NCBI GenBank assembly: GCA_046731415.1
Contig: JBKPLD010000089.1
Location: forward strand, 1-51,509
Reading direction: 5' to 3'
From: Verrucomicrobiota bacterium
GTDB taxonomy: Bacteria; Verrucomicrobiota; Verrucomicrobiia; Chthoniobacterales; UBA10450
Length of the DNA: 51,509 nt
Shown here: piece after piece, positions 35,995 to 51,509 of the stretch
Numbering within the stretch: the stretch's first letter is position 1
How the letters are laid out: each line of letters opens with the position of its first letter
Notes under the pieces: model-generated
Seen by the model: the letters and a program-made list of their open reading frames with translations, nothing else
Databases searched by the model: none
Told to the model about the DNA's origin: nothing
Program-made: the position numbers and the translations under genes

Positions 35995-36528
35995 ATGGAT
36001 CCTAGTGAACGCGAACAATATCAGGCGGCCATTCACGGCGATCGAGAGGCATTTGAAATGATCATTCGTCGACATAGCCGGACACTTTTCGCAGTCGCTT
36101 ACGGTATTCTGCAAAACCGCGAAGAAGCAGAGGACGTCGTGCAAGATTCGTTGGTCAAAGCGTGGAAAACGCGCTGGCGGGTCCGCGATCCTGAAAAATT
36201 TCCCGCCTGGTTCGCAACCATCGCGCGACACAAGGCCCACGACGTTTTTCGCAAACGCCGCACTGTTCCTTTGCCGAAACAACTGACGGAAGCATTCGAA
36301 CCAGAAATAGCGGGCGCGAGTCCGTTAGATGAACAATTGCATTCCGCGCTTGCCGCGCTGCCAGAACTTCATCGAGCCGCGCTCACGTTGCGCTATTTCG
36401 AGGAAATGGATTATCGCACCATTGAAAACACTCTTGGTCTGACCAATGGCGCGCTGCGCGGGATTCTCGGTCGCGCCCTCTCTGCCATGCGGAAACAACT
36501 TCGTCCGGCCCTCGTCTCAATGGATTAA
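35995..36528 (+). CDS. ECF-type RNA polymerase sigma-70 factor
   Basis: 177-aa ORF with region 2 'AEDVVQDSLVKAW...FPAWFATIARHKAHDVFRKR' and region 4 'LTLRYFEEMDYRTIENTLGLTNGALRGILGRA'. Confidence 0.88.
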   Translation: MDPSEREQYQAAIHGDREAFEMIIRRHSRTLFAVAYGILQNREEAEDVVQDSLVKAWKTRWRVRDPEKFPAWFATIARHKAHDVFRKRRTVPLPKQLTEAFEPEIAGASPLDEQLHSALAALPELHRAALTLRYFEEMDYRTIENTLGLTNGALRGILGRALSAMRKQLRPALVSMD

Positions 36529-36532
36529 GCGT

Positions 36533-38557
36533 ATGGCAACGATCCACGACGAAATCGACACCTGGGTGACTGCCGAACTGCACGGCGAGCTTTCTGAAAG
36601 CGAACGGAGCGCGCTTCATACGCACCTGGTCGATTGCGCCGCGTGCCGAAAAACCCATCAGGAAATCAAAACTATGAACAAAATTCTGGAAGAAACTCTC
36701 GCACAGGAAAAACCCGATCCGGTGTTTGAACAGCGCATGCTGGCTGGTTTTCGGAGTCGCGTTCCTCAACGAAGCGGACTTGTAAAACTGCTCGTCGATC
36801 TAATGCGCTTTCGCGCAACCCAAATCGCGGCAGTCGCCGCTGTGTTGCTCGGGCTTGTACAGATTGGACGCTTGGTCACTGGCGAAACGTTTAATGTGTC
36901 CCGCGGTCGTGAGCGCGATGCGGGAACGGAATTCGCCGCACCGCAGCCGCCAGAATCACGTCCAAGTCAGGCCGGAGCGCTGAGCAGATCAGAGCAGATC
37001 GGCGGGGGACGACCACAAGACCTTGCCATTGAGGCGCCGGCCCCGCCGGCCGCAGCCAGATCAAAATTCCGCGAAGAAGACAAAGCAGCTGCGACGGTTG
37101 CGCCGGCCAAAACCGCGCAGTCGGAAGCCAGTGATGTCGCAGCGAACGTAGTTCCAGAGAACACTACCGTTGGAAAAGAAGGTGCGGCAAGCACGGTTGA
37201 AACGCCCGCTGGGGAAGCGGCCAATCGCAAACTGATCCGCAACGCAACTGTCGAGCTGGAGATCGTCAGCTTTGATACCGCCGTCCAGAAGATCACTGCA
37301 TTCGCGAACGAAGAACGCGGGTATGTCGCTACGACGGATTCCGAGAAACAGGCAAACGGCAAACTGAAGGGCCAGGTTGTCGTTAAGGTGCTGCCGCAGA
37401 ACCTGGATCACTTTCTCCAAAAGATTCGAAGCCTTGGTGAATTAAAAAACCAGACGCTTGGAACTGAGGACGTGACCAAGGCATATTTCGATACCGATGC
37501 GCGCCTGAAAAACGCGCGCGTTATGGAGCAGCGTTTGATCGAGATGCTCAAGACGAAGACCGGCAAGGTCTCCGATCTGTTGCAGGTGGAAAAAGAACTT
37601 GGGCGTGTGCGCGAAGAGATCGAGAAGATGCAGGGCGAGTTAAAATACTGGGACTCTCAGGTTCAATTCGCCACCGTGACGATTTCGCTGGCAGAAAAGG
37701 ATATGGAAGAACCGGCGGCCTTCCTGTTGAGGGAGCGCGCTCAGCTGGCACTCTACGCGCCCGATGTCGAGAAGATTTACAACGAAATCAAAAGCACGGC
37801 CTCGCCAAAGGTCCAGATTACCAACGCGCAACTAAACCGTGACTATTCCGGCCGCGTCTCTGCGCAGGTGAGCATGTTGATCGCTCCGGAAGAAAGCGAC
37901 GGGGTCATTGGCCGTGTCAAAGCTGCCGGACGCGTGGAAAATTTCCAAACGCAGATCCAACGCATCGCGCAAGGTGGCACCGGCATGTCACCAAATGCCA
38001 GGACCAAGCGTGACAAGGTGGAACTCAACGTCACCATCTCTCGCGAGGAACAGGAGCAAGCTCTCCAGCAAACAAGCTTGCGCATTCGCACGTCGTCCGT
38101 GGACGACAAGGCAAAGCAGCTTCGAGCTCTCACGGAGAAACAAGGCGGACGCATTCGCAGTTCTACCTTCAGTCGCGATCCGGATGGCCGCGCAGTAGCG
38201 AATGTTTCTATTCGCGTACCGATGAAAAATTATGGGGCGCTCATGCAATCATTCGACTCGTTAGGCAAAGTCGAGAACGTCAGTGTGCAACGCCAGGACC
38301 GTACGGATGCGCAGGTCAACGAAGCAAACGCACCGGCGGACGTTTCGATCCAGGTTTACAGTCAGGGCAATATCGTTGCCGAAGAGAGCGGCTTGCTTGC
38401 CACGCTGCGGCGCACACTTGCGCAAAGCGCCGGCGCAATCGCGTGGAGCTTGCGCATGATTGGTGTTGCGGTCGCGTTTCTCGCGCCCTGGGCGATTGCT
38501 TTTGTCGCCGCTATTTGGATCACGCGACGCGCGATTCGCGCGCGATCGAAGCTGTAG
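36533..38557 (+). CDS. membrane anti-sigma factor (zf-HC2) fused to a large periplasmic DUF4349-like/coiled-coil region with a C-terminal TM anchor
   Basis: ATG 36533 lies 4 nt after the sigma stop. It has 'HLVDCAACRKTHQEI' (an HxxxCxxC anti-sigma zinc motif) and a TM helix around 'IAAVAAVLLGLV'. 'RKLIRNATVELEI...' to '...VREEIEKMQGELKYWDSQVQFATVTISL' resembles DUF4349 (from memory). There is a C-terminal TM segment 'MIGVAVAFLAPWAIAFVAAIWI'. Confidence 0.75.
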   Translation: MATIHDEIDTWVTAELHGELSESERSALHTHLVDCAACRKTHQEIKTMNKILEETLAQEKPDPVFEQRMLAGFRSRVPQRSGLVKLLVDLMRFRATQIAAVAAVLLGLVQIGRLVTGETFNVSRGRERDAGTEFAAPQPPESRPSQAGALSRSEQIGGGRPQDLAIEAPAPPAAARSKFREEDKAAATVAPAKTAQSEASDVAANVVPENTTVGKEGAASTVETPAGEAANRKLIRNATVELEIVSFDTAVQKITAFANEERGYVATTDSEKQANGKLKGQVVVKVLPQNLDHFLQKIRSLGELKNQTLGTEDVTKAYFDTDARLKNARVMEQRLIEMLKTKTGKVSDLLQVEKELGRVREEIEKMQGELKYWDSQVQFATVTISLAEKDMEEPAAFLLRERAQLALYAPDVEKIYNEIKSTASPKVQITNAQLNRDYSGRVSAQVSMLIAPEESDGVIGRVKAAGRVENFQTQIQRIAQGGTGMSPNARTKRDKVELNVTISREEQEQALQQTSLRIRTSSVDDKAKQLRALTEKQGGRIRSSTFSRDPDGRAVANVSIRVPMKNYGALMQSFDSLGKVENVSVQRQDRTDAQVNEANAPADVSIQVYSQGNIVAEESGLLATLRRTLAQSAGAIAWSLRMIGVAVAFLAPWAIAFVAAIWITRRAIRARSKL

Positions 38558-38602: not shown

Positions 38603-38671
38603 GAAAAGGGAATCATTCTTGCCCCCTCGGCAAACGAGTCATAGGTTACTTATATTTTCCGGAGGTTGCCG

Positions 38672-40474
38672 ATGAAATCTCAAGGCGGTATCAGCTATAG
38701 CAACGCGGCGGTCGCTGCTTGTCCTAAACATTTGCTCCAATTCGCAGTCGATCAGCGATACGACGATTACACATCGGTCGACCATGCGGTCTGGCGATTC
38801 ATCATGCGCCAGAACATTTTTTTCCTGAAGGAATACGCCCACAAGGTTTATTTCCAGGGTCTTCTCAACACGGGCATTTCGTTCGAGCGCATCCCGCGTA
38901 TCGAAGAAATGAACGATATCCTGGCGAAAATCGATTGGGGCGCGGTGGCAGTAGACGGTTTCATTCCGCCGGCGGCGTTCATGGAGTTTCAAGCCTATAA
39001 GGTGCTCGTGATCGCCTGCGACATGCGGCAAATACATCACATCGAATACACGCCTGCGCCGGACATTGTACACGAAGCCGCAGGCCACGCTCCAATCATT
39101 GTCGATCGTGAATACTCAAATTATTTGCAGCGCTTCGGTGAAGTGGGCGCGAAAGCAATGTCGTCCAGGAAAGATTTCGAGCTGTACCAAGCGATCCGCC
39201 ACTTATCGATCTTGAAGGAGCGCCCGAATGTCGATCCGAAGGAACTCGATGAAGCAACCAAACTGGTGGAACATCGCCAGAAAAATCTCGGCGAACCCTC
39301 GGAGATGGCGCTACTCTCCCGTTTGCACTGGTGGACCGTCGAATATGGGCTCATCGGTACGCTCGAGAATCCAAAAATTTACGGCGCTGGTCTGCTTTCC
39401 TCGATCGGTGAATCGGTCTCGTGCCTCGAACCTGAGGTAAAGAAAATCCCCTACTCTATCGACGCTCAGAACTACGCGTTCGATATCACTACGAGGCAAC
39501 CCCAGCTTTTCGTCTGCCGCGATTTTCAGCATCTCAAGGACGTTCTTGAAGAATTTGCCAGCAAGATGGCGTTCAAAGTTGGCGGACTCGAAGGCATCAA
39601 CAAAGCCGTTGAATGTAATAACACCGCGACCTGTGAATATTCATCCGGTCTCCAGGTCAGCGGGATTTTCACCGAGGTTATCACGGACGAAAATAATTCT
39701 CCCATTTATTTGCGCACAACGGGCAAGACCGCGCTGGCGTTCCAAAGCAAAGAACTCGAAGGGCACGGTATTGATTATCACAAGGACGGTTTTGGTTCGC
39801 CAGTCGGCAAATGGAAACAAACCTCAACGGCGCCAAAGGCGCTCACCAACGATCAACTGCACGCGCTTGGGATTGTCGAGGGTAAGAAAGCGAAGATTGA
39901 GTTTGTCAGCGGCGTAGTTGTGTCAGGAAAGGTTGAGAAAATTTTGCGAGGCGACGGGAAACTGTTGTTGATCACATTCTCAAACTGCAAGGCCAAGTAC
40001 CGTGACCAAGTCCTCTTCCAGCCCGAGTGGGGTGTTTACGACATGGCCGTTGGCGAACGAATCAGTTCGGTATTTAACGGAGCAGCAGATAAGGACGCCT
40101 ACAATCAGGTGGCGCTCGTTCCAAAGGAACGCACCATCAAGATTCCTTCTACGCCGGAGCGCGAGCGACTCGAGAATCTTTACGCTCAGGTCCGCAAGAT
40201 TCGCGAGAGCAAAACCGGTTATGAACGGCTTGGCGAAATTTGGGAGACACAGCAAGCCGAACATCCCGAAGACTGGCTGTTGTCGATGGAAATTTTTGAA
40301 ATCCTCGACACAACCGACCAACAGCCGGAATTGAAAGCCAGGATCGAGAAGTTTCTGAACGAGAAAAAATCGAAGAGCAAAGATCTGGCGACGCTGATCA
40401 GTTGGGGGTTCCGCCTGGTGAAATACCATAAGAAGCCGGAATACCAGTCTGCGTTGCACGGCTCGTCGAAATAG
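38672..40474 (+). CDS. phhA: aromatic amino acid hydroxylase (phenylalanine-4-hydroxylase-like), long form with a ~300-aa C-terminal extension
   Basis: ATG 38672 is preceded by GGAGG (38661-38665). It has 'PDIVHEAAGHAPII' (2-His iron ligands), 'HWWTVEYGLIG' (Glu ligand) and 'IYGAGLLSSIGES'. Residues ~300-600 have no family I recognise. Confidence 0.8.
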   Translation: MKSQGGISYSNAAVAACPKHLLQFAVDQRYDDYTSVDHAVWRFIMRQNIFFLKEYAHKVYFQGLLNTGISFERIPRIEEMNDILAKIDWGAVAVDGFIPPAAFMEFQAYKVLVIACDMRQIHHIEYTPAPDIVHEAAGHAPIIVDREYSNYLQRFGEVGAKAMSSRKDFELYQAIRHLSILKERPNVDPKELDEATKLVEHRQKNLGEPSEMALLSRLHWWTVEYGLIGTLENPKIYGAGLLSSIGESVSCLEPEVKKIPYSIDAQNYAFDITTRQPQLFVCRDFQHLKDVLEEFASKMAFKVGGLEGINKAVECNNTATCEYSSGLQVSGIFTEVITDENNSPIYLRTTGKTALAFQSKELEGHGIDYHKDGFGSPVGKWKQTSTAPKALTNDQLHALGIVEGKKAKIEFVSGVVVSGKVEKILRGDGKLLLITFSNCKAKYRDQVLFQPEWGVYDMAVGERISSVFNGAADKDAYNQVALVPKERTIKIPSTPERERLENLYAQVRKIRESKTGYERLGEIWETQQAEHPEDWLLSMEIFEILDTTDQQPELKARIEKFLNEKKSKSKDLATLISWGFRLVKYHKKPEYQSALHGSSK

Positions 40475-40545
40475 TTTGAGCAGCGCCGCGGCGCCACCGG
40501 AATTTGTGATGTCGAGCCATCTCTGGTCCTAGTTTTTAAGAGTTA

Positions 40546-40584
40546 GAGATTCCTCGACTTCACCGGGTTCCGCTCGGGAACGAC
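40546..40584. repeat. family A terminal-repeat remnant (inverted orientation)
   Basis: The sequence is gagattcctcgacttcaccgggttccgctcgggaacgac. A weak partner 'gtgatgtcgagccatctc' lies at ~40506-40523. Confidence 0.45.
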
Positions 40585-40615
40585 AGGCGGACTAGGCGTG
40601 GTTTAGTTTCGCTCG

Positions 40616-41956
40616 TTACTTCCCGACGACTAGACTTGAACCGTAAGCTCCGGATAGCTTTCCGCTTCGCGCAAAGTCGCGCATCATGACGAAGTAGCCC
40701 GGCGCATACCGCGTTGAAACACGCTCACCATTTGGGGCGACTTCGTACTCGGTCATTCCATGCTCGGCGTGAGGAAATAGTGCGAGCGTGATTGGTTTCC
40801 CTTCCGTAATCAGGATCCTGACGCGGCGGCTGGTCTCAGCGCTGGTCGCTTCGAGATCGTCCTCTCCGAGAATCCACAACTGTGGGGCTTTGACGGAGCG
40901 AAGCGTTGGCATGGGATCATAACGGAATGGCGTTCCCCAGATGAACTCCTTGCCCTTCTCTCGAAGCTCAGCTTCGGAGTACGGCAAAAAGAAGTGTGTA
41001 TAATTGCCATGCAGGTCTTTGTACCAAGGTTCATGTCGGTACTTGGCTCTTATAGCATCGAAACGTTCGAAGCCGTTGGTGAAATTGCTCTCGAATATCG
41101 CTTCGGCCGCGGATGCTACCTCCAGCGCTTTGGAAATTTCTTCCTGAGTATGACCTTTGAGGCGCATCTCAAGCGCAACCTCCTCTTGGTCTTCATCGAT
41201 GACGGAGACGGCCAGACCGAAGCTAACAATAACGAAATCGACCGGCGCGCGTGTCGCAGCGAGTGGCGCGACCCATCCGCCCTGGCTGCCGCCTTGATAT
41301 CCGATCCTGCCGCAGCGCGTACCCGCGATTCGCTTTGCTTCTCGCATCGCAGCGACGGCGTCATCTGCGAGTGTATCGAAATCCTGCGTGTATTTGCCTC
41401 CCGAGCCACCGGTCCCGCGCTTGTCATAAACAAAGACGCCGACGTTCTCGGCCGGTAACAGTCGTTGGAGCGCGTAGGATTCGCGCGCAGGTTCTCGTTC
41501 CGCTCCGTGAATGAGAACCACGATCGGAACCGGGTTTTCGCCTTTAGGCAGCACTAGTCGGCCAGCAAGCTTAATTCCGCCACGACCCTCAAACACTGTG
41601 TCAGTCACATCGAACGGGATCCGGGACGCCTTTTTGCCGTCGAATTGAATCCCACCCTTCGCACAGGTGGTGAACGACGCGGTATGACCGTCTGGATGAT
41701 CCGTCCACCCCAGCGTGCTTGTCCACGAGCCGTCGTGCGCCTGGTGCAAAACGCCGGTCGTCCCATCGAATTTACGCCAACGAAATGTTTTGTCTTCAGA
41801 TGGTGCGATGTCGACGATTCCTCCGTCCGGAAAGCGGTAAGCGCCTGCTTGGCAATCATCGCCGGTGCTTTCCGTCGCAAGAGCACCGCCGAAAGAGGCT
41901 GAGAGACTGAAAATGACAAACCCAAACAACAAGAAGTGAACCTTGAAACAATGCAT
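40616..41956 (-). CDS. secreted alpha/beta hydrolase (S9 peptidase / dienelactone-hydrolase-like)
   Basis: 446-aa ORF with a signal peptide, the nucleophile elbow 'IGYQGGSQGGW' and a C-terminal 'FPHAEHGM' (catalytic His context). Confidence 0.72.
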   Translation of the reverse strand: MHCFKVHFLLFGFVIFSLSASFGGALATESTGDDCQAGAYRFPDGGIVDIAPSEDKTFRWRKFDGTTGVLHQAHDGSWTSTLGWTDHPDGHTASFTTCAKGGIQFDGKKASRIPFDVTDTVFEGRGGIKLAGRLVLPKGENPVPIVVLIHGAEREPARESYALQRLLPAENVGVFVYDKRGTGGSGGKYTQDFDTLADDAVAAMREAKRIAGTRCGRIGYQGGSQGGWVAPLAATRAPVDFVIVSFGLAVSVIDEDQEEVALEMRLKGHTQEEISKALEVASAAEAIFESNFTNGFERFDAIRAKYRHEPWYKDLHGNYTHFFLPYSEAELREKGKEFIWGTPFRYDPMPTLRSVKAPQLWILGEDDLEATSAETSRRVRILITEGKPITLALFPHAEHGMTEYEVAPNGERVSTRYAPGYFVMMRDFARSGKLSGAYGSSLVVGK

Positions 41957-42066
41957 TTCCCTTTATGATGCAATCTGGTCCTGTTCCAGATTCGAAAATT
42001 CGCGACAACAGGATGAATGATCGCGATGGGCCACGCCAAAAACTCAGGTGAGATAGAGCGCGACTT

Positions 42067-42915
42067 TTAGATTCTTTCGTCTTTGAAGTGCCGTTTGCCT
42101 TTCAGCGCCTTTGCGTATTCGTCCTTGCTCAGAATATTCTCATCGAGTTGCATGTCGGTGCGAAGAAAGTTTTGGAACCAATTTTCGATTCGCTGTCGAT
42201 CTTTGAGCACTTCCTCCGTAATGTAATTGGCGTCGATGTTAATGCAGATTGCGCCAACGATTCCGAATTCTTTTCGTTTGATTGGAATCGTGGTGCATTT
42301 GAATTTTCGCGCTCCGATGTTCAGCTCGTAATTCAATTTGTCTTCGTTCAACAGCTGTCGGCGTTTGAGATCAATTAGCAGATTCGTTGTACCATCGCGT
42401 AAATGGCGCCCCGTGACATTGTTTTCGAGCGTGATCAACGAGTGCGCCGGATCTGCCAGGTTGTGTAGCAAAATCTCGATTCCGGTATTCGGAAACGATT
42501 TCCCAATCAAACGCACAATCCGCGCGTAGTTTTCGAGAAATTCCTGTGTGTCGTCGGCGATCGTTTTGCCGTCGTATTTCTCGAACAACTGCGCGTAAAC
42601 CTTTTGTTCAGCTGGTTCGAGTTGTGCGCGCACGTTATTTTGTTCTCCGATGAAAATGAGCTGCCGTGCGGCGGTGTGATCCCGGTTCTTGAGGAAGTAA
42701 TGCATGCCCAACCGAAAATCTTTCAGGCTGAATTCTCCGAAGTTTTCGCGCGTGACCGTGAATGGATAGAAGTCGTAATCTTCCAGATTCCGGCCAAATT
42801 TGCGGCGTTGTTCCTTGTACTTGCCCCAAACAAACCCTATCGTCAGAAAGAGCACCGACACAATGATCGACGCGACGACGTTGACGCTGAGTTCGCTTTG
42901 CAGGGCTTTGATCAT
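42067..42915 (-). CDS. membrane-anchored YheO-like PAS-domain protein (candidate sensor/regulator)
   Basis: 282-aa ORF with the N-terminal TM 'VVASIIVSVLFLTIGFVW'. 'EILLHNLADPAHSLITLENNVTGRHLRDGTTNL' and 'GIVGAICINID' resemble the YheO-type PAS domain (from memory). I saw no obvious C-terminal HTH. Confidence 0.5.
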   Translation of the reverse strand: MIKALQSELSVNVVASIIVSVLFLTIGFVWGKYKEQRRKFGRNLEDYDFYPFTVTRENFGEFSLKDFRLGMHYFLKNRDHTAARQLIFIGEQNNVRAQLEPAEQKVYAQLFEKYDGKTIADDTQEFLENYARIVRLIGKSFPNTGIEILLHNLADPAHSLITLENNVTGRHLRDGTTNLLIDLKRRQLLNEDKLNYELNIGARKFKCTTIPIKRKEFGIVGAICINIDANYITEEVLKDRQRIENWFQNFLRTDMQLDENILSKDEYAKALKGKRHFKDERI

Positions 42916-42937
42916 GGGAAAAACATTTTCGGTGCCG

Positions 42938-43018
42938 CTCTAGCCATCGGTCTGCAGCCGATGCCTGCCTGGAACGCAGTCCTTAGCGAAAATGGCTCAC
43001 AGAGCTGTGGCTACAACG
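42938..43018. repeat. degenerate family B element (reverse orientation)
   Basis: The sequence is ctctagccatcggtctgcagccgatgcc...ggctcacagagctgtggctacaacg. Its reverse complement aligns with ctgtagcggcgctctatgagcgcc...cggtcacagaccgccgctacag. Confidence 0.5.
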
Positions 43019-43043
43019 TACTGCTGACGCCGAGACTAACGGG

Positions 43044-43736
43044 TTACAGATTTCCGGCCAAGCTGGAAATACTGATATTCTCCAGTGTAACGGCTGCGGG
43101 ACGAGAGAGCGCGTATGCCACGGCACTGGCGACATCCTCTGGCGAGATCATCTTATGTCTAGGCCATTTCCCTTCGATCTGAGTCCAGATGTCGGTGTCT
43201 GTCGCGGCGGGGTAAACGTTAATCACTCGTATCTTGCGGTCGCGCAATTCTTCGCGCACGCATTGCGAGAATCCTTCAAGCGCGAATTTGCTCATGCAAT
43301 AAGCGCTCCAGTTGGCGAACCCAGTCTTCGCCGCGATGGAAAGTATGTTGACGACGCTGGAGCCAGGCGGCATCGCCGGGGCAAGGTGCTGCATTAACAT
43401 AAACGGCGCGGTGATATTGACTCCCACCGTTTGCTCCCATTCAACCGCTGTGATTTCACAAAAGGGCTTCACGACCGCGATGCCTGCATTGTTAACGAGC
43501 AGATCCACGGGCTTCGTTCCAACCTGCTCAATGAGGTCGGAAACACCGGACGGGACAGCAAGGTCATGGATCAGGCGAACCACACGCCCGCAATGCTGCT
43601 TCACTGCATTGCAAACGTCGGCTAAAGCAACGGTATCGCGTCCGTGGAGAAGCAATTCGACATTCGGTGCCGCCAGTTTCTCGGCAATTGCGCGACCAAT
43701 TCCGCGACTCGCCCCGGTGATTAGATAGCGTGTCAT
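43044..43736 (-). CDS. short-chain dehydrogenase/reductase; by context a candidate sepiapterin reductase or dihydropteridine reductase
   Basis: 230-aa ORF with 'LITGASRGIGRAIAEKL', 'NNAGI' and 'YCMSKFA' (Tyr-x3-Lys). The pterin role is inferred only from the neighbouring genes. Confidence 0.8.
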   Translation of the reverse strand: MTRYLITGASRGIGRAIAEKLAAPNVELLLHGRDTVALADVCNAVKQHCGRVVRLIHDLAVPSGVSDLIEQVGTKPVDLLVNNAGIAVVKPFCEITAVEWEQTVGVNITAPFMLMQHLAPAMPPGSSVVNILSIAAKTGFANWSAYCMSKFALEGFSQCVREELRDRKIRVINVYPAATDTDIWTQIEGKWPRHKMISPEDVASAVAYALSRPAAVTLENISISSLAGNL

Positions 43737-43799
43737 AAAAATTGCCAGAGCGCGACGGTCACTCGACCCTGAGCTCGTGGCCGAAGGGCCGGGCGCGCC

Positions 43800-43820
43800 G
43801 GACGGCTCGGCGAGCCGTCC
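43800..43820 (-). terminator. perfect 9-bp stem / 3-nt loop hairpin (ggacggctc-ggc-gagccgtcc) just downstream of the PTPS gene
   Basis: Read directly from the sequence. There is no U-tract, and the GGACGG...CCGTCC stem motif recurs in the family C repeats. Confidence 0.3.
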
Positions 43821-43831
43821 CTATCATTGCG

Positions 43832-45043
43832 TTACATTCGCCGCAAGGTAAACCGGTTATTGGCTGTTTCCCATAAGCGCAGCCTAACGAGTTGTTGATT
43901 CACGCGATTGTCGATCTTCGGCCAGAGCGCGCGGACGATGTTCTCCCCGGTCGAAGGCGCCTTGCGGAAATCTTCTGTTTCCAGATCGAGATGCCGATCC
44001 CGCCACGGTTCCAACGATTTCTGTATGGCGTTCCTCAACGCAACAAAATCGTAGAGCGTTCCGCTGCGCTCATCGTAGTCGCCGCCGATTGTAGTTTCCG
44101 TCAGATAACCATGGCCATGACCCAGCGGATTGTTGCACTTGCCATAAAGCTTTGCGTTTTCGGCATCCGACAGAGTCGCGGCGTACAAACGGTGTGCAGC
44201 ATAAAATCCCATCTGCATTCCAAGAAACACCCTTCCGTTCTTCCAAACCTCGGCAAAAAAATCTGCGCGCTCGTGCAGGCGCACGCGATCCAGCAGCGCC
44301 ATCGAGCTCGCACGTTGGTAGATGTAACCCGCCAAACTCTCCGTCGTGATGGGACGGTTGGCCAAACCAGCTACATCGTCATTGAGATAACGGTGGTCAA
44401 GCTCGTCGGTTAAACGACGCAAACAAGCATCGATCGCGTCGTAACGGACCAGCGGTTGGACAGTGAAGGCTTTCGCCGATCGGTAGGTCAGTCGAACGCG
44501 ATAATTATGCCCGTGAATGGAAGTGGCCGATCCAAACATACGCGCGTTTTCATCAGCGTTTAACCGGGGCGACATCGTTTTGCGTGCCGCTGAAAATTCG
44601 AACCAGTAATTCGCCTCGCAGGCGCCGTTGGAGTAAAAAGTCGCGCTACGCTCGGGCGACTCAGTCAGATGACAGGCAACGAGCTTAGCATTGTCGTCGG
44701 AAAACGAAGAGGCAACATCGACATACAGTTGCTGCGCGATATTTTCGGCGGTCGGAGGAACGTCACGGAAGGAAGGATTGTCTTCGTTCAGGAACTTGTG
44801 ATCAAATCGCTGCCGCACAATTTTGCCGGCACGCTCCTTGATTTCGCTGATGTTAATCAGCATTCCCGTATTCGAATCAACGGGACCGGCGAACACAAAA
44901 TAGGCTGCGAAATTGCGACCGCTCCCGTGGCGCGCGTTCGTTTCGGGACCAAAGGCGGCCAGATTTTCGTTGTCGCTCCACTGGGCGACATGCAAGCGGC
45001 GAGAAGCCGAAAATTCGAGACGCTTGCTGACTGTCAGGAGCAT
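43832..45043 (-). CDS. 6-pyruvoyl-tetrahydropterin synthase family protein with three tandem PTPS/T-fold repeats
   Basis: 403-aa ORF with three ~134-aa repeats. Repeat 1 has FSASRRL...FGPETNARHGSGRNF...DHKFLNED...TAEN. Repeat 2 has FSAARK...FGSATSIHGHNY...DHRYLNDD...TTES. Repeat 3 has FYAAHRLY...YGKCNNPLGHGHGY...RDRHLDLE...TGEN. Confidence 0.8.
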   Translation of the reverse strand: MLLTVSKRLEFSASRRLHVAQWSDNENLAAFGPETNARHGSGRNFAAYFVFAGPVDSNTGMLINISEIKERAGKIVRQRFDHKFLNEDNPSFRDVPPTAENIAQQLYVDVASSFSDDNAKLVACHLTESPERSATFYSNGACEANYWFEFSAARKTMSPRLNADENARMFGSATSIHGHNYRVRLTYRSAKAFTVQPLVRYDAIDACLRRLTDELDHRYLNDDVAGLANRPITTESLAGYIYQRASSMALLDRVRLHERADFFAEVWKNGRVFLGMQMGFYAAHRLYAATLSDAENAKLYGKCNNPLGHGHGYLTETTIGGDYDERSGTLYDFVALRNAIQKSLEPWRDRHLDLETEDFRKAPSTGENIVRALWPKIDNRVNQQLVRLRLWETANNRFTLRRM

Positions 45044-45082
45044 GATTCAGCAAACACGTTGCTGGTCATTGCGCAACTTATC

Positions 45083-45216
45083 GGAAGTCAGGCATCTTGT
45101 CGCCAGAGGACGCGTTTGCCGTGGCGAACCTGACTGGACGGGCGGCATCTTGCCGTCCATGATATTTCGACAAGCGAGCCGCTTGTTACCCAAAACAGGC
45201 TAGAAGCATGTCTTCC
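45083..45216 (+). repeat. family C structured repeat, copy 1 (134 bp)
   Basis: The sequence is ggaagtcaggcatcttgtcg...gtggcgaacctgactggacgggcggcatcttgccgtccat...ctagaagcatgtcttcc. Its first ~78 nt are ~85% identical to copy 2 and the last ~17 nt are shared. Confidence 0.8.
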
Positions 45217-45223
45217 AAGAATT

Positions 45224-45243
45224 AGTCAAACATTCTTTTGACT
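45224..45243. promoter_or_regulatory. 20-bp palindrome AGTCAAA-N6-TTTGACT, candidate ArsR-family operator upstream of arsR-like gene
   Basis: agtcaaacattcttttgact has perfect 7-bp arms and ends 29 nt before the ATG at 45272. A near-identical site lies at 45978-45997. Confidence 0.5.
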
Positions 45244-45271
45244 TACTCGGAATCCTCATATCTTAAAATCA

Positions 45272-45901
45272 ATGAAACATATGGGATGGCGGCAGCGATT
45301 GTTCAAAAGCACGAGAGGGAAAATTCTCGACCTCCTGCGAACACGAGAGCGAACAGTGAACGAACTCGCAGCAGAGTTGCGGCTGACCGATAACGCCGTG
45401 CGAGCGCACCTTGCCAGCCTCGAGCGCGATAGACTCGTGTCCCAGTCAGGTCTCAAACGAGGCGTTCGCAAACCGCACACGACTTATTCTCTTGGGCCGG
45501 AAGCCGAACAACTGTTTCCGAAGGCATACGGGCGGCTGGTGTCGCTTCTCATGTCAATATTCTCATGGCAGATTAAGCCAGGAAACCTGCGCGCCGGGAT
45601 GCGCTCCGCTGGGCGAGCAGTAGCCCGGGAACACCTGCCTGGGTTGAAGGGCAAAACCCGTCGGCAAAGAATCGATGCTGCACTACGCATTCTCAAGGAA
45701 CTCGGAGGTGCGGCCACTTTTCGTGAAGAAGACGGCAAGCACTTTATCCATGGCAACGGCTGCCCGATTGCTGCGGCTACGGCGAACCATCCCGAAGCAT
45801 GCTTGCTTGCGGAATCATTGCTCACCAGCGTCATCGGCTCGCCCGTAAAAGAACGTTGTATCCGGGGACCGACGCCCTCCTGCCGGTTCGAGGTGAAATA
45901 G
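45272..45901 (+). CDS. ArsR-family winged-helix transcriptional regulator with a Cys-containing C-terminal domain
   Basis: 209-aa ORF with 'TRGKILDLLRTRERTVNELAAELRLTDNAVRAHLASLERDRLV' (an ArsR-type HTH) and C-terminal 'GNGCPIAAATANHPEAC...PSCRF'. Confidence 0.8.
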   Translation: MKHMGWRQRLFKSTRGKILDLLRTRERTVNELAAELRLTDNAVRAHLASLERDRLVSQSGLKRGVRKPHTTYSLGPEAEQLFPKAYGRLVSLLMSIFSWQIKPGNLRAGMRSAGRAVAREHLPGLKGKTRRQRIDAALRILKELGGAATFREEDGKHFIHGNGCPIAAATANHPEACLLAESLLTSVIGSPVKERCIRGPTPSCRFEVK

Positions 45902-45977
45902 GTATTCCTTCGCCCGTTTGGCGGAACGAAAGACATCCGTTCATTGCGCCAGTTTCGTAATTTAGAATACAATAAAT

Positions 45978-45997
45978 AGTCAAATAATTAATTGACT
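45978..45997. promoter_or_regulatory. 20-bp palindrome AGTCAAA-N6-ATTGACT, second candidate operator, upstream of the doxX-like gene
   Basis: agtcaaataattaattgact has the same 7-6-7 architecture as 45224-45243 (6/7 in the right arm). It ends 33 nt before ATG 46030. Confidence 0.45.
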
Positions 45998-46029
45998 TAT
46001 TACGATAGAATCAACCACCATTGCCAGCC

Positions 46030-46437
46030 ATGAATACAACCGATAACCAATCACACGCCGCGACGAATTCGCCTTCATATCAAGCATATTGGATCCTTCA
46101 TTTTGGATTCACCGTTGCCCCGATCCTCGCCGGGTTGGACAAGTTTTTCCACCTGCTGACGAATTGGGACCAGTACCTTCCTGGAGTAGTAGCGAATGCG
46201 TCGCCAATAGCGCCGCACACGCTGATGCTTATTGTTGGCGTGATCGAGATTGTGGCCGGACTTGGAGTTTGGCTTAAACCACGGATTTTCGCCTACGTCG
46301 TGGCCGCCTGGCTTGCGGTGATCATAGTAAATCTGTTACTGATCCCCGGGTACTTCGATGTGGCGCTGCGGGACTTTGGACTATTACTTGGCGCCCTTGC
46401 CCTGGCTCGATTGAGCCAGCAGTTCTCGCGCGGCTAA
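46030..46437 (+). CDS. DoxX-like small integral membrane protein
   Basis: The ORF runs 46021 (TTG)-46437, with ATG at 46030. It has four hydrophobic helices, and 'ILHFGFTVAPILAGLDKFF' and 'GVIEIVAGLGVWLKP' are DoxX-like. Confidence 0.65.
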   Translation: MNTTDNQSHAATNSPSYQAYWILHFGFTVAPILAGLDKFFHLLTNWDQYLPGVVANASPIAPHTLMLIVGVIEIVAGLGVWLKPRIFAYVVAAWLAVIIVNLLLIPGYFDVALRDFGLLLGALALARLSQQFSRG

Positions 46438-46467
46438 TCGATCGTCCGCTAACGGCGCAAAGTAGGC

Positions 46468-46662
46468 GGAAGTCAGGCAGCTTGTCCACCACAGGACGGA
46501 TTCGCCGTGGCGAACCTGACCGGACGGACGGCATCTTGCCGTCCATCTGTAAAGCTGGAAGCTTTACTTCCCCCGGCCGGCGGGTTTCCAGCCTGCCGAG
46601 CCTATTGCCGGTTCGACAAGCAAGATGCTTGTCGGTCGAGACAAGCTGGAAGCATGTCTTCC
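46468..46662 (+). repeat. family C structured repeat, copy 2 (195 bp, with extra internal hairpins)
   Basis: The sequence is ggaagtcaggcagcttgtcc...gtggcgaacctgaccggacggacggcatcttgccgtccat...cgacaagcaagatgcttgtcg...ctggaagcatgtcttcc. It has the same orientation as copy 1 and abuts the folE stop codon. Confidence 0.8.
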
Positions 46663-47291
46663 TAATCTTTCAACAGCGAAAGGAACTCAGACCGGGTGCG
46701 CGCGTCGTCCTTGAAAACACCGAGCAGACAGGATGTTTTCATGACTGAGTTCTGCTTTTCAACACCTCGCATCATCATGCAGAGATGCTTAGCCTCCACC
46801 ACCACCGCCACGCCAGAGGGCTCAAGGCAATTCATGAGTGACTCGGCAATCTGCGTGGTGAGATTCTCCTGAATCTGCAAGCGCCGGGCAAAAACGTCGA
46901 CAATACGCGCAACCTTGGAAAGGCCGATTACCTTTCCGTTTGGAATGTACGCCACGTGCGCGCGGCCAATGAACGGAAGCAGATGATGCTCGCATAGCGA
47001 ATAAAGTTCGATGTCTTTTACCAGAATGATCTCGCTCGCGCTGGACTCGAACACAGCGTCGTTAATGATCTCATCGAGATCCTGGCGATAACCTTGCGTG
47101 AGAAATTCCAAAGCATGTGCCGCTCGATCTGGAGTCCGACGCAGCCCTTCGCGGTCGACGTCTTCGCCAATGCTGTGAAGTAATTCCCGATACGCTTTCG
47201 CGATCTTATCGAGGTCCTTTTCCTGGAGTCGATTGTTCTCGCGCGCGAAGGGCTCCTCAACATCGAGATCGGAATTGCGTCGTTGAATCAT
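46662..47291 (-). CDS. folE: GTP cyclohydrolase I (FolE type IA)
   Basis: 209-aa ORF with '[22 protein letters not shown]' and '[15 protein letters not shown]'. Confidence 0.95.
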
Positions 47292-47328
47292 AAGTTGTGT
47301 TGGAATTAACTTAGCACAATCTCAATGT

Positions 47329-47355
47329 GTCATGTCGAGCGAAGTCGAGATATCC
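47329..47355. repeat. solitary family A terminal-repeat-like half site
   Basis: The sequence is gtcatgtcgagcgaagtcgagatatcc. It lies between the hmgA stop and the folE start. Confidence 0.45.
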
Positions 47356-47416
47356 CGTGACGGCACTGGCCAGTCATTTCACGCGATTCTTCAACGTCGT
47401 TTGGATGCCACTGCAG

Positions 47417-48601
47417 CTAATCGAGCCAGCTCTGAGGATATTTTGGATCATCCAACGCCAGCGACTCTTCGGTCAGATCAAGCGTGTGCTGGGTGTCGAA
47501 CATCACGGCGAGCTCTTCCGTGCGCGTTGCATTCCTGCTTGCCAGGATCGTCCCCGGGTGTGGCCCGTGCGGAATCCCGCGAGGATGCAGCGTAATCGAA
47601 CCGCTCTCAATTCCGCGCCGTGAACCAAAATTCCCGCGCACGTAAAAGAGAACCTCATCAGCTTCCACGTTGTCGTGCACCCACGGAATTCTTACCGCTT
47701 CTGGATGCGTATCGAGCATCCGCGGCGCAAAAGTGCAAACTACATAACCGCGAATTTCAAAAGTCTGATGAATCGGTGGCGGCTGATGGACCGTACCGGT
47801 GATCGGCTCGAAATCCTGTGCGTTGAACGTGAACGGGTAGAGATAACCATCCCAGCCGACCGCGTCGAACGGATGATGAGCCAGCGTGACCCGCGTGAGT
47901 CGTGCCCCATCTTTTACGAGAACATCGGCGTCTTCCTCCTTATCGACCGTAATTATTTCGCGAGGGCCGTGAAGGTCGCGCTCGGAGTACGGCGCGCCCA
48001 TTTTGATTTGCCCTTCGTGGTTCAGGTAGCGCTGCGGGATCCGAACAGGGCCGACTGATTCGAGAATGAGATAGTCCTCCTCTTCAATCTGGTCCGGCAC
48101 GAGCCTGTAGGTGATTCCGCGCGGTATGACGATGTAATCCTCGGCGCGGTACGGTAGTTTGCCGAAGACCGATTCCATTACGCCGCCGCCGTGAAACACG
48201 AAAATGATTTCGTCGGCGCCGCCGTTTTTGTAATATTGAAATTTGTCGTACGCCTTCGCTGGCCTGCCGCGATAGGCGATTACATCTTGATTAAACAACA
48301 TGGGGACGCGTCCCGTGTAGAGATCGCCGCGCCGCGGGATATTTGCGGTCTTCAAATGGTGATGTCGCAGCGGGCTGTCAGTCACCTTTTTCGGTTCCCA
48401 GTGTTTGAGTAACTCGACATTGCGCACGCGCGTAGGCGGCCGCAGGTGATACATAATCGAGTACGCCTCATCAAATCCCTGTGTTGTGAAGACGTGCTCA
48501 TAGGCGATGCCTTCGTTCTTGTACGAAGGTGTCGATCCGTTGCGATGGAACCAGATATGATGTTTCCTCGGAATCTCTCCGAGTCTTTGATAATACGGCA
48601 T
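47417..48601 (-). CDS. hmgA: homogentisate 1,2-dioxygenase (short ~390-aa form)
   Basis: 394-aa ORF with the N-terminus 'MPYYQRLGEIPRKHHIWF' and a cupin region 'ADEVLFYVRGNFGSRRGIESGSITLHPRGIPHGPHPG'. GGAGG lies 8 nt upstream of the ATG. Confidence 0.9.
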   Translation of the reverse strand: MPYYQRLGEIPRKHHIWFHRNGSTPSYKNEGIAYEHVFTTQGFDEAYSIMYHLRPPTRVRNVELLKHWEPKKVTDSPLRHHHLKTANIPRRGDLYTGRVPMLFNQDVIAYRGRPAKAYDKFQYYKNGGADEIIFVFHGGGVMESVFGKLPYRAEDYIVIPRGITYRLVPDQIEEEDYLILESVGPVRIPQRYLNHEGQIKMGAPYSERDLHGPREIITVDKEEDADVLVKDGARLTRVTLAHHPFDAVGWDGYLYPFTFNAQDFEPITGTVHQPPPIHQTFEIRGYVVCTFAPRMLDTHPEAVRIPWVHDNVEADEVLFYVRGNFGSRRGIESGSITLHPRGIPHGPHPGTILASRNATRTEELAVMFDTQHTLDLTEESLALDDPKYPQSWLD

Positions 48602-48618
48602 TGTCGTTTCCTCCCCTT

Positions 48619-49758
48619 TTACAAATTACCTCTGGCTTCTTGTTCGCGTTCAATGGCTTCGAAGAGCGCCTTGAAATTGCCTTTGCCAAAGCTCTTTGCG
48701 CCTTTGCGTTGAATAATTTCGAAAAAGAGCGTGGGACGGTCCTCTACCGGTTTGGTAAATATTTGCAGCAAATAACCTTCATCATCGCGATCAACAAGGA
48801 TGCCCAGGCGCTTTAGAGCGTTGAGCTCTTCATCGATATGACCCACACGATCGAGCAACGTTTCATAGTAAGTCGAAGGAATCTGCAAGAATTCGACGCC
48901 GCGTTTTTGCAGGCCCGTTACCGTTTCGATGATGTTGTTTGTCGCCATGGCGATGTGCTGCACACCTTCGCCGTCATAAAACTCAAGATATTCTTCCACC
49001 TGCGATTTCTTTTTACCTTCTGCTGGCTCATTGATCGGAAACTTCACGAATCCGTTCCCATTGCTCATTACCTTGCTCATCAGTGCAGAGTACTCGGTGG
49101 AAATATCTTTATCGTCGAAAGTGAGAATGTTCCGAAATCCCATCACCTCTTCGTAAAACTTTACCCATGGATTCATCTGACCCCATCCAACATTGCCCAC
49201 GCAATGATCGACATGTTGCAGTCCGGTCTCAGGCGGGTTGTAGGCCGATTCCCATCTGCGGAACCCAGGCAGGAACGGGCCGCGGTAATTGTCGCGCTCA
49301 ACGAAAAGATGAACGACATCGCCATAGGTGTGGATGCCGCTTACGACAACCTCGCCATGCTCATCTGACAGTGTCTTGGGCTCCATGTAACTCTTTCCGC
49401 CACGCTTCGTGGTTTCTTTCCAGGCAGAGGTAGCGTCCCCCACGCGCAACGCCAGCGTCTTTACACCATCTCCATGCTTGTAAATGTGATCCGCGATCGG
49501 GTTCTTCGCTCGGATCGGCGTCGTTAGCACGAACGTGATTTTGTTCTGTCGAATCGCGTAGCTCGCTCGATCTCGTACGCCAGTCTCAGGCCCAGAGTAG
49601 GCAAGGCTCTGAAATCCAAAGGCTGTTTTGTAAAAATTCGCCGCCTGTTTGGCGTTACCGACGTAGAACTCAACGTAATCGGTGCCGTGCAGCGGCAGAA
49701 AATCTTCCTCGATTACCGGTGCTTTCTTAGTTTTTGGAGCAGCAATTGTCGTTGGCAT
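48619..49758 (-). CDS. hppD: 4-hydroxyphenylpyruvate dioxygenase
   Basis: The ORF runs 48619-49797. ATG 49758 is preceded by GGGAGG. It has 'HGTDYVEFYVGNAKQAANFY', 'GVQHIAMATNNI' and the C-terminus 'FFEIIQRKGAKSFGKGNFKALFEAIEREQEARGNL'. Confidence 0.93.
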   Translation of the reverse strand: MPTTIAAPKTKKAPVIEEDFLPLHGTDYVEFYVGNAKQAANFYKTAFGFQSLAYSGPETGVRDRASYAIRQNKITFVLTTPIRAKNPIADHIYKHGDGVKTLALRVGDATSAWKETTKRGGKSYMEPKTLSDEHGEVVVSGIHTYGDVVHLFVERDNYRGPFLPGFRRWESAYNPPETGLQHVDHCVGNVGWGQMNPWVKFYEEVMGFRNILTFDDKDISTEYSALMSKVMSNGNGFVKFPINEPAEGKKKSQVEEYLEFYDGEGVQHIAMATNNIIETVTGLQKRGVEFLQIPSTYYETLLDRVGHIDEELNALKRLGILVDRDDEGYLLQIFTKPVEDRPTLFFEIIQRKGAKSFGKGNFKALFEAIEREQEARGNL

Positions 49759-49997: not shown

Positions 49998-51509
49998 CTA
50001 TCTCAACGAGACATCGTCTATCCGGAAGGTCGTGGACAACGAATAATCGGTTGTACAGCGGAATTGCAGTCGGATCGTCTGCCCCCGGTAAGCAGCAAGG
50101 CTAAACGATTTTTGTGAATAATTCCCAGGGGTTGTTTTGTCCCTGTTGCTGTAGGTGGCGATGGTTTGAAGTAATGTGCCGCTGGCATTGCGGACCTCCA
50201 CGTACAAGAAATCATAGGCCTGTGTCGTACCCTCCTGAGAGCTGCAGTTGAACCAGAAAGTTAGGCTTCCTGTAGCCGTGGTGGGGATGCTGACTGTTTG
50301 ATAAGTGTGTCCGCACACGTTGTTGTTCACGCCAAAATAGATGTAACCCGTGCCGCCGTGAGGATAATTGCCGTTGTTGGTATAAAAGGCGCCAGAACCC
50401 GACATGACCCAGGGCGATATGCTGCCTTCAAGTCCGCCATTAACGATCAATTGACTCGGAGTCCCTGTGGGCGTTGCCGTCGCGGTTGCGGTAGCAGTCG
50501 GAGTAGCTGTAGCTGTAGCCGTCGCGGTAGGAGTCGCAACCGGGGTCGCCGTGGGAGTTGCCGTTGCTGTCGCTGTTGCCGTTGGTGTCGGTGTCGGGCT
50601 GCCAGTTGCGAGCTTGAAGCTGCCAATGCGTGTGCGCCAGTTGTACGAGGTGTTCGAGGAATAGTATTCGTTTGTGTACCAGAAGGTCATGTCGTCCACA
50701 GGATCGATCGTCAACGAGCTGTAATCGCCCCAGCGATTACCGCTGCCGGTTTGGCTGCCCGCGCCGTCATAAAGATGAGCTTCGCCTTGAGCCAGAGTGT
50801 TGAGCGGGTCTGATCGCCAAACGCCCCGCATAACGAAGCTGGGGATGAATACTTGAGCTCGAAGCGCTAAAGCCGATGGCGAGATTCCCCTGCCCATCCA
50901 TCGCCGCACTCCCCATCCAGCGCCAGGTTGTGTCAGGCTGATAAGTGCTCTGCTGATAGATGGTGACTGGTCCGGAAGTCACGTTGCGCAGTTCAAACCA
51001 GCGAATTCCCGCCACGCCGCCAGAGCTTGCAGTAAAATTGCCGACCACCGATTCGTGATCGCCGAAATTCCGATAAGCCAGGCGAAACATCAAACGGTCC
51101 CCAATGCCGTCGAGATAATTTGAGCTGGTGACTCCGCTTTGAGGTACACAGGCCCGGCTGGTAGGACAAAGCGCGGTAAAACCGGCCGCCGGCGGATTGG
51201 CAAAGGTGGTAAAAGTCGAGTTCGCAGGAGTAACGAAATCCACATGGAAATGATAGGTGGTGTAATTTGGATTCGTGGCTTGGCCGGGAAATCCCACGAA
51301 ACTGTTTGGAGCACCGGTTGGCGGTAATCTCGACCCATCGAGATCTGCGGGCAGAAACGGATCGACTGATCCACCAAGAGGTCCCACCGGACTAACAAAT
51401 GTAGCAGGTTGTCCGGCCAGCATTTTCGTCCGGTCAAAGGCAAACGGCTGAGGACTGAGGTACTGCGTGCCCGACGAATTGAAAACGTTCATGCTCGTGT
51501 AATAGGCAT
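49998..51509 (-). pseudogene. secreted multi-domain protein (N-terminal propeller/sialidase-like region, Thr/Pro/Ala linker, C-terminal jelly-roll/CBM-like domain); frameshifted and 5'-truncated by the window edge
   Basis: Two overlapping minus-strand ORFs (50767-51492 and 49998-50909) read as one protein if 1 nt is removed near 50811-50820: ...IHPQLRYAGRLA|SDPLNTLAQGEAHLY.... The upstream frame remains open to position 51509. 'NRWGDYSSLTIDPVDDMTFWYTNEY' is typical of BNR/sialidase-like folds (recollection). Confidence 0.6.
50454..50606 (-). repeat. coding imperfect hexanucleotide repeat (GTNGCN on + strand) encoding a (T-P/T-A)n linker
   Basis: It translates as TGSPTPTPTATATATATPTATPVATPTATATATATPTATATATATPTGTPS. 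Confidence 0.85.

Follow-up and report, generated by a model that had tools for sequence, protein, structure and literature searches.

Does a bacterium that degrades phenylalanine through homogentisate carry, among the same genes, its own supply of the pterin cofactor used by phenylalanine hydroxylase (PAH)? The question is raised by a stretch of 51,509 nucleotides from a Verrucomicrobiota bacterium of the order Chthoniobacterales (contig JBKPLD010000089.1; hereafter the window, meaning this whole stretch), in which genes for PAH and for two dioxygenases of tyrosine degradation lie among genes for a GTP cyclohydrolase I (folE), a protein of the 6-pyruvoyl-tetrahydropterin synthase (PTPS) family and a short-chain dehydrogenase/reductase (SDR). 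Bacterial PAH is usually described together with phhB and phhC (PMC3458870), and tetrahydromonapterin made by FolX and FolM serves the enzyme in Escherichia coli and Pseudomonas (as cited in PMC13259868); pathways of the tetrahydrobiopterin (BH4) type with a PTPS-II enzyme exist in some bacteria (PMC5041015). Our reading, to which we give a probability of about 0.72, is that the locus is a conserved supercluster in which the upper homogentisate pathway of Phe/Tyr catabolism is joined to three genes dedicated, as a module, to making a BH4-type tetrahydropterin de novo, which would supply PAH. A reading of the letters made earlier (the original prediction) had proposed this BH4 route, and its interpretation was supported as far as sequence analysis goes.

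Gene identities were assigned from the open reading frame (ORF) listing and from profile searches of the window proteins with Pfam and NCBIfam/TIGR models, every ORF of at least 150 aa being scanned against Pfam. The catabolic side comprises a long-form pterin-dependent aromatic amino acid hydroxylase, the PAH, of 602 aa (38666-40474, + strand; NF010657 at 803 bits against a cutoff of 346, and Biopterin_H), 4-hydroxyphenylpyruvate dioxygenase (HPPD, gene hppD; 48619-49758, - strand; TIGR01263 at 460.5 bits against 277) and a short, divergent protein of the homogentisate 1,2-dioxygenase (HGD) type (gene hmgA, 394 aa; 47417-48601, - strand; HgmA_N and HgmA_C above their gathering scores). The pterin side, entirely on the - strand, comprises a FolE-type GTP cyclohydrolase I (46662-47291; TIGR00063 at 257.6 bits against 181.6, over positions 1-179 of the 180 in the model), a PTPS-family protein of 403 aa (43832-45043; PF01242 at 207 bits in three stretches) and a classical SDR of 230 aa (43044-43736; adh_short at 155 bits). 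Fumarylacetoacetase (FAH; 10772-12040, - strand) lies outside the cluster proper, about 27 kb off, and was matched by both its N- and C-terminal domains (FAA_hydrolase_N and FAA_hydrolase). The ORF listing and profile matches thus agreed with the original prediction on the six clustered genes, their families and positions and on the distant fumarylacetoacetase; its observation that hppD and hmgA are 17 nt apart, each with a GGAGG before its ATG (position 49758 for hppD), was confirmed by direct reading of the sequence. Two of its descriptions had to be amended. The six genes do lie together, but two + strand inserts, a yheO-like gene and a hydrolase gene, none of which it had mentioned, lie within the same stretch; and the PTPS-family assignment stood, but the protein joins three PTPS modules in one chain and so is no plain PTPS.

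Close relatives of this PTPS, 83-89% identical, number in the thousands, and those with names belong to Candidatus Udaeobacter or Verrucomicrobia. A one-genome-per-species scan yielded 80 Chthoniobacterales/Udaeobacter loci (68-88% identity), onto which the window proteins were mapped. In all 44 loci that covered the seven core genes, the order was hppD, hmgA, folE, PTPS, SDR and yheO-like, with PAH on the opposite strand. The median intergenic gaps of the core were about 80-130 nt, and in many relatives the six same-strand core genes could form one operon. In 31 of 75 loci an ArsR/SufR-like gene separated folE from PTPS, with a membrane-protein gene alongside in 30 of the 75, and a hydrolase gene was found in 11 of the 58 loci that covered the interval between yheO and PAH. 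The core was thus retained while these optional inserts were gained or lost, and the arrangement reflects more than chance. As a separate observation, one contig labelled Candidatus Dormiibacterota (L001, DATIOX010000065.1) carried the cluster at 88-95% protein identity to the window and is probably a mis-binned Udaeobacter contig.

Outside the Chthoniobacterales, the genomic contexts of 12 distinct three-module PTPS proteins were sampled. The fused PTPS was adjoined by folE in all 12 and by an orthologous SDR gene in 10 of them, as it is by the SDR gene in the window and in 76 of the 80 related loci. In six of these contexts (L084, L087, L088, L089, L090 and L092), the pterin module was directly convergent with a catabolic block, and every one of the six blocks held a long PAH, an FAH-family hydrolase, an aminotransferase, a short HGD and HPPD. 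A pterin-4a-carbinolamine dehydratase (PCD), lying between the module and PAH, was encoded in five of these loci, and acetoacetyl-CoA synthetase and flavin reductase were encoded in five of the six; to our knowledge, PCD has no job other than recycling hydroxylase pterin. Two of the six PTPS proteins belonged to identity clusters with proteins named Zixibacteria/Zixiibacteriota and one to a cluster with proteins named candidate division GN15. The proteins of these loci were 57-59% (PAH), 67-72% (FolE), 45-50% (PTPS) and 37-40% (HGD) identical to those of the window, and the flanks and gene order of these Zixibacteria-type loci differed from the window's. Because the same association recurs in another phylum, the pairing of the pterin module with Phe/Tyr catabolism, present in at least two phyla, is on sequence grounds a real functional unit and not a chance neighbourhood. 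The original prediction had called a BH4 module within a catabolic cluster unusual; this holds against the textbook phhAB operons, but the arrangement is the rule in two large uncultured lineages and no peculiarity of the window.

The enzyme at the centre of the module has a composite architecture. When aligned with rat PTPS and E. coli QueD, the protein split at about aa 137 and about aa 270 into three full modules, and repeat alignment placed module 1 (aa 1-137) at 44633-45043, module 2 (aa 138-270) at 44234-44632 and the PTPS-II-type module 3 (aa 271-403 plus the stop codon) at 43832-44233, all on the - strand. The rat reference sequence was partly confirmed by its PDB match, and residues are related below to the rat numbering (His23, Cys42, His48, His50, Asp88, His89, Glu107 and Glu133). 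Conservation was assessed over 45 diverse relatives of full length, which were 38-87% identical and came from Verrucomicrobia, Zixibacteria and metagenome-assembled genomes. In module 3, His284, Cys303, His309, His311, Glu367 and Glu392, equivalent to rat H23, C42, H48, H50, E107 and E133, were present in 45 of 45 homologues; its motif CNNPLGHGH (aa 303-311) is the C-x5-HGH that had been noted in the original prediction. The full zinc site together with the Cys was kept in this module only, and W-R-D-R-H replaces Asp88-His89 there. Module 1 retained Asp81, His82 and Glu100 (rat Asp88-His89 and Glu107) in all 45 homologues, had a Cys at the catalytic position in none, and has often lost its zinc ligands, leaving a degenerate site. 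Module 2, which lacks the Cys, kept His177 and His179 of an HGH, Asp216, His217 and Glu258 each in 44 of 45 homologues and Glu235 in all 45, with Arg154 in place of the first zinc His in 44 of 45. The zinc-His and Glu set was incomplete in modules 1 and 2 alike. With the catalytic Cys found in module 3 only and the Asp-His pair in module 1 (45/45) and module 2 (44/45) and not in module 3, a Cys/Asp-His triad is possible only in trans, between modules or between chains.

The best PDB sequence matches of module 3 were the human (3i2b), Caenorhabditis elegans (2g64) and rat (1b66) PTPS, with E values from 1e-21 to 3e-20. An AlphaFold model of the fused protein, built from the 45-sequence alignment, had a mean pLDDT of 96.6 and a pTM of 0.93; in this monomer model the three modules pack tightly, the pseudo-threefold packing being read from the pTM value. 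In the Foldseek search animal PTPS ranked first (TM 0.90-0.93 on the target, rmsd 1.2-1.4 A), ahead of QueD in second place, and each module had animal PTPS as its best match. Coverage of the model by any one PDB chain did not exceed a third (TMq at most 0.32); weak matches to FolE2 and urate oxidase extended over several modules. In rat PTPS, the zinc/Cys site of a subunit and the Asp88-His89 pair of another, in the opposite trimer, together make up each active site. On that basis, the chain is most likely a single-chain pseudo-trimer, two copies of which would form the usual hexamer-like particle, and we infer that the zinc/Cys site of module 3 would be completed in trans by an Asp-His pair that the partner chain contributes from its module 1 or 2, so that a particle would have about two active sites where the usual one has six. 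Module 2, being almost invariant and having no Cys but an HGH, an Asp-His pair, two Glu and an Arg for the zinc His, could hold a second pterin site of a different kind, for binding or for catalysis; in that case the pathway might yield a pterin other than plain BH4, or might be product-regulated. The full proposal, namely an undescribed trimodular T-fold PTPS in which one chain makes up the whole trimer ring, the catalytic residues are divided among the modules and module 2 could be such a second site, is put forward tentatively, as a serious possibility to which we would not yet commit ourselves.

A search of 50%-identity representatives recovered full-length three-module relatives down to about 30% identity as well as two-module relatives of about 275 aa, and the named members included Ardenticatena maritima (Chloroflexota), Zixibacteria/GN15, Omnitrophota and Limnocylindria. 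The two-module proteins (P0181-P0259; about 275 aa; Omnitrophota and Limnocylindria) matched modules 2 and 3, with the Cys motif in the last module, and may represent an intermediate stage of a fusion series. The three-module protein of A. maritima (L081/L082, 10001-11257) has a QueD-type C-x3-HGH in module 2 and C-x5-HGH in module 3 and may be bifunctional; its gene stands in the order PTPS-folE-SDR, with overlapping stop and start codons.

The SDR has the motifs TGASRGIG, NNAG, Arg33, Ser133 and Tyr146-x3-Lys150 (YCMSK), which make it a classical SDR with a Gly-rich motif of the NADP type. Orthologues 52-57% identical to it directly follow the fused PTPS in other phyla, and unrelated classical SDRs are usually about 30% identical. 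It is thus no generic FabG-like housekeeping enzyme, an alternative that would have deprived the locus of its BH4 route: these orthologues travel with folE and the fused PTPS, and a FabG-like candidate lies apart from the cluster, at 29200-29943. In PDB searches, the sepiapterin reductase (SR) of Chlorobium tepidum (2bd0) ranked seventh with the single SDR sequence (85 bits) and second with a profile of six PTPS-linked orthologues, where it reached 152.5 bits against 157.7 for the top match, clavaldehyde dehydrogenase; this likeness is suggestive, not diagnostic. The SDR is accordingly proposed as a candidate for the SR-type last step of tetrahydropterin synthesis, for which its genomic context is the stronger argument. 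The isomer made by the C. tepidum SR is L-threo, and the stereochemistry of the window's product is therefore not predictable. Assignment to the FolM/PTR1/PruA pteridine reductases, whose N-terminal mark is TGX3RXG (PMC13259868), was ruled out, since TGASRGIG has Gly at the diagnostic position.

On the catabolic side, PAH aligned over aa 19-559, its C-terminal half included, with a solved phenylalanine-4-hydroxylase of 592 aa (7vgm; E = 7e-159), and its iron site (His-x4-His...Glu) is kept, HEAAGH and WWTVEYG aligning with 7vgm. At the sequence level this is what a pterin-dependent hydroxylase should look like, as had been predicted; the likely start is the ATG at 38672. A literature search on 7vgm returned nothing relevant on the pterin used or the source organism. 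The hmgA product scored 57.5 bits on TIGR01015 against a cutoff of 510.75, although HgmA_N and HgmA_C passed. Because these Pfam domains pass, the PDB matches are HGDs only (with the His/Glu/His iron ligands aligned) and the gene lies beside the HPPD gene in two phyla, we take the protein to work like HGD and to come from a short divergent branch beyond the reach of TIGR01015, an assignment based on sequence comparison. Directly upstream of PAH, at 35995-38557 on the + strand, overlapping ORFs encode an extracytoplasmic function (ECF) sigma factor and a zf-HC2/DUF4349 anti-sigma protein; the sigma/anti-sigma/PAH order was kept in 37 related loci, and PAH could be under ECF control.

Several steps of a complete pathway are missing from the window. 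Neither the Pfam scan of its ORFs nor, for the first two, queries with Zixibacterial proteins found PCD (Pterin_4a), an aromatic aminotransferase or maleylacetoacetate isomerase in the window, in keeping with the original prediction, which had seen no phhB, Tyr aminotransferase or isomerase gene there. Zixibacterial queries for flavin reductase and acetoacetyl-CoA synthetase likewise gave no match in the window or in the 80 related loci. A 197-aa ORF (10182-10775) that overlaps the FAH stop was considered as the isomerase and ruled out, its one match being a weak one to PAP2. The fumarylacetoacetase region has on either side an amino acid dehydrogenase gene of the Glu/Leu/Phe/Val type (8346-9725, + strand, and 14221-15483, - strand), and 15658-16773 encodes a Cys/Met PLP enzyme; a Phe/Tyr-directed dehydrogenase could stand in for the absent aminotransferase. 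In four of the Zixibacteria-type clusters, a Flavin_Reduct protein (PF01613) of about 320 aa (L087 16272-17252, L088 15945-16907, L090 16555-17526 and L092 16317-17282) and acetoacetyl-CoA synthetase are encoded between PAH and the FAH-family gene, and the former is a candidate dihydropterin-recycling enzyme.

From these genes we infer the following route. FolE would convert GTP to dihydroneopterin triphosphate, from which the three-module PTPS would form 6-pyruvoyl-tetrahydropterin, and the SDR would reduce the side-chain carbonyls of this intermediate to give a tetrahydrobiopterin-like cofactor. With that cofactor the long-form PAH would hydroxylate Phe to Tyr, which would be transaminated to 4-hydroxyphenylpyruvate by an enzyme encoded outside the window; HPPD and the short HGD would then lead to maleylacetoacetate, and FAH, 27 kb off, would complete the pathway.

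Each pterin gene could nevertheless be read differently. Public records (NCBI and JGI) label relatives of the fused PTPS 6-carboxytetrahydropterin synthase, the whole protein reached 108.9 bits on the QueD model TIGR03367 (cutoff 89.25), and module 2 gave weak matches to E. coli QueD structures, all of which would fit a folE/PTPS pair that serves queuosine (preQ0) synthesis or, as a PTPS-III-type enzyme, a folate bypass. Scored singly, however, the modules reached 39, 43 and 35 bits, so that the whole-protein pass is the sum of three sub-threshold scores. The signatures of the family are C-x5-HGH for PTPS-II, C-x3-HGH for QueD and E-x-x-HGH for PTPS-III (PMC5041015), and the Cys-bearing module has the first of these; no C-x3-HGH occurs in the window protein, and P-L-G (module 3) and T-S-I (module 2), not E-x-x, precede HGH, which ruled out the folate bypass. 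Exactly one C-x5-HGH and zero C-x3-HGH were counted in 234 of 254 retrieved proteins of 380-440 aa, a tally that leaves out P0212, a distant three-module protein (30% identical) with C-x3-HGH in its last module; that protein, which has folE nearby but neither an SDR nor a PAH gene, is probably a member of a different, QueD-like subfamily. The fused chain, with 403 aa in three modules, also departs from the PTPS-II homohexamers, whose single-module subunits are about 120-145 aa. No queC, queE, queF, folB, folK or folP was found in the window or next to the gene in any of the 12 outside contexts, and the constant partner SDR is needed by neither pathway. Motif, per-module scores and gene context together, with the animal PTPS as best matches, led us to reject the QueD assignment, and a role in queuosine or folate synthesis is very improbable. 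The SDR, in turn, might act on quinonoid dihydropterin as a recycling enzyme like dihydropteridine reductase (DHPR), the side chain being reduced by a reductase encoded elsewhere: animal DHPR, at about 240 aa, belongs to the SDRs too, no other recycling enzyme is encoded in the window, and an extra Flavin_Reduct gene occurs in the Zixibacteria-type clusters. Yet the SDR keeps its place with folE and the fused PTPS in contexts that lack PAH, the best 60 PDB matches include no DHPR structure while a bacterial SR ranks between second and seventh, and the motif is TGASRGIG in place of TGX3RXG (motif from PMC13259868), which together make a recycling role improbable.

The product of the three genes might also have nothing to do with PAH, being for instance a pigment or UV screen like the cyanobacterial biopterin glycosides, a redox buffer or a signal, with its placement due to history or shared regulation. 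Non-cofactor roles of pterins are documented in bacteria (PMC13259868), and no PAH was found within 10 kb of the pterin module in 6 of the 12 outside contexts, so the module is self-contained and may also serve other users. Against this stand the adjacency to long PAH and homogentisate genes in both Verrucomicrobiota and Zixibacteria-type genomes, whose flanks otherwise differ, and the position of PCD between module and PAH in five of the six such loci; moreover, a cofactor role and another role are not mutually exclusive. We consider a PAH-unrelated pterin unlikely, though less so than either of the two alternatives above. For the supercluster that would make a BH4-type cofactor for PAH, the contexts with no PAH are one of several observations that count against it. 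Neither PCD nor DHPR was found in the window or within 10 kb of PTPS in the 80 related loci, which makes cofactor recycling the main gap in the proposal; the recycling enzymes may be encoded elsewhere, or spontaneous carbinolamine dehydration may be combined with another reductase, or de novo supply may compensate. Sequence alone does not separate the SDR from other classical SDRs, clavaldehyde dehydrogenase standing slightly above SR, and the argument on quaternary structure leans on structural data for rat PTPS and on a monomer model. Finally, two + strand genes interrupt the cluster, an ArsR/SufR-like regulator with a Cys-rich C-terminal part (45272-45901; HTH_5, and a weak SufR match) and a small, weakly DoxX-like membrane protein that belongs to the same optional insert (46021-46437; DoxX E = 0.019). 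A single operon is thereby excluded in the window, which has at least three transcription units (hppD-hmgA-folE; PTPS-SDR-yheO, possibly with the hydrolase gene; and PAH), which may be co-regulated; promoter and terminator scans came out at chance level, and their result was not used.

Two further genes lie between the SDR gene and PAH. The YheO-like PAS_6 protein (42067-42915, - strand; PF08348 at 62.8 bits, aa 127-232) has an N-terminal hydrophobic segment and no detectable helix-turn-helix. Its gene was present in 69 of the 80 related loci with a median identity of 91%, the highest in the cluster (75% for PTPS), and none was found in the Zixibacteria-type clusters examined. As the last member of the PTPS-SDR unit, the protein is possibly a sensor or regulator of the pterin/Phe genes. 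The other gene, an optional insert at 40616-41956 (- strand), encodes a secreted alpha/beta-hydrolase (S9/S33-like; Pfam Peptidase_S9 and Hydrolase_4). An ArsR gene, with genes for ArsP, thioredoxin and DsbD, was also seen beside folE at an unrelated locus (L083), and at two of the related loci (L018 from 1055 and L021 from 321) a folE-like gene whose product is 53-54% identical to the window's FolE lies beside an ArsR gene, which suggests a second FolE paralogue in some Udaeobacter genomes. The remainder of the window consists of housekeeping genes, as judged from the Pfam and profile scan. Near its 3' end, overlapping ORFs at 49998-50909 and 50767-51492 (- strand) resemble pieces of one large secreted protein; the first has a long Thr/Pro/Ala-rich linker (TPTPTATATATATPTATP...), and neither is connected with the pterin/Phe cluster.

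The supply of cofactor to bacterial PAH is well worked out for the tetrahydromonapterin (FolX/FolM) route only, and the present cluster points to a second, dedicated route of the BH4 type that is physically tied to the catabolic genes in two large, uncultured and environmentally abundant lineages; Udaeobacter is among the most abundant soil bacteria. It offers a ready three-gene test set for heterologous pterin production and a natural cofactor candidate for the long-form PAH family, of which a structure is already solved. The fused PTPS would be a case in nature of a homo-oligomer that became one chain and then had its catalytic residues divided among the copies, and the recurrent absence of PCD from the Verrucomicrobial version, against its presence in Zixibacteria, poses the question of cofactor recycling. 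Three-module PTPS proteins in their thousands are systematically misnamed 6-carboxytetrahydropterin synthase through summed weak module scores; if the trimodular reading is true, Udaeobacter and Zixibacteria use a cofactor pathway whose key enzyme is mislabelled QueD across public databases. Given the gene names, a specialist would expect the pathway biology; the non-obvious parts are the enzyme architecture, the breadth of lineages, the misnaming and the missing recycling step. No description of a three-module PTPS with split catalytic residues, or of a pterin module joined to a long-PAH/homogentisate cluster, was found in the literature searched, the coverage of which was partial, so that an earlier mention of either is possible.

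Among known systems, the animal de novo BH4 pathway resembles the cluster in using GTP cyclohydrolase I, PTPS and SDR families in the same logical order for a Biopterin_H hydroxylase, and the human, rat and C. elegans PTPS, with the same Cys-x5-HGH, are the closest to module 3 in both sequence and fold; in the Zixibacteria-type versions, the presence of PCD adds to the likeness. Unlike the animal genes, those of the window lie in one cluster with catabolic genes, the PTPS unites in a single chain three modules of which one has a catalytic Cys, the SDR resembles the bacterial (Chlorobium) type of SR and not the animal one, neither PCD nor DHPR is encoded in the window, and PAH, at 602 aa, has an extra C-terminal half of about 300 aa. 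With the phhABC operon of the Pseudomonas type the cluster shares a bacterial PAH that feeds the homogentisate pathway and cofactor-related genes beside the hydroxylase (PMC3458870), but it has no phhB or phhC in the window and no PCD or aminotransferase match in the 80 related loci, whereas the Zixibacteria-type versions carry both; its PAH is also the long NF010657 form and not the phhA form of about 260-300 aa. The FolX/FolM route differs in that it runs through FolX and a TGX3RXG reductase, where the cluster has an enzyme of the PTPS-II type and a classical SDR bearing TGX3GXG. The PTPS-II signature is shared with cyanobacterial BH4 producers (PMC5041015), and the SDR resembles 2bd0 of Chlorobium tepidum. 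A PTPS of one module serves the cyanobacterial and Chlorobium systems, whose pterins are known chiefly as glycosides and not as products of a module beside PAH. The bimodular T-fold enzymes (FolE2, urate oxidase and type II QueF) are alike in their tandem T-fold fusion, by which one chain makes more than one wedge of the barrel, and the terms unimodular and bimodular are in use for QueF (PMC5372742); in the window protein, by contrast, three modules would form the whole trimer ring, with the catalytic residues divided among them. The long-form bacterial PAH represented by 7vgm and NF010657, finally, matches the PAH of the window over its full length, C-terminal half included.

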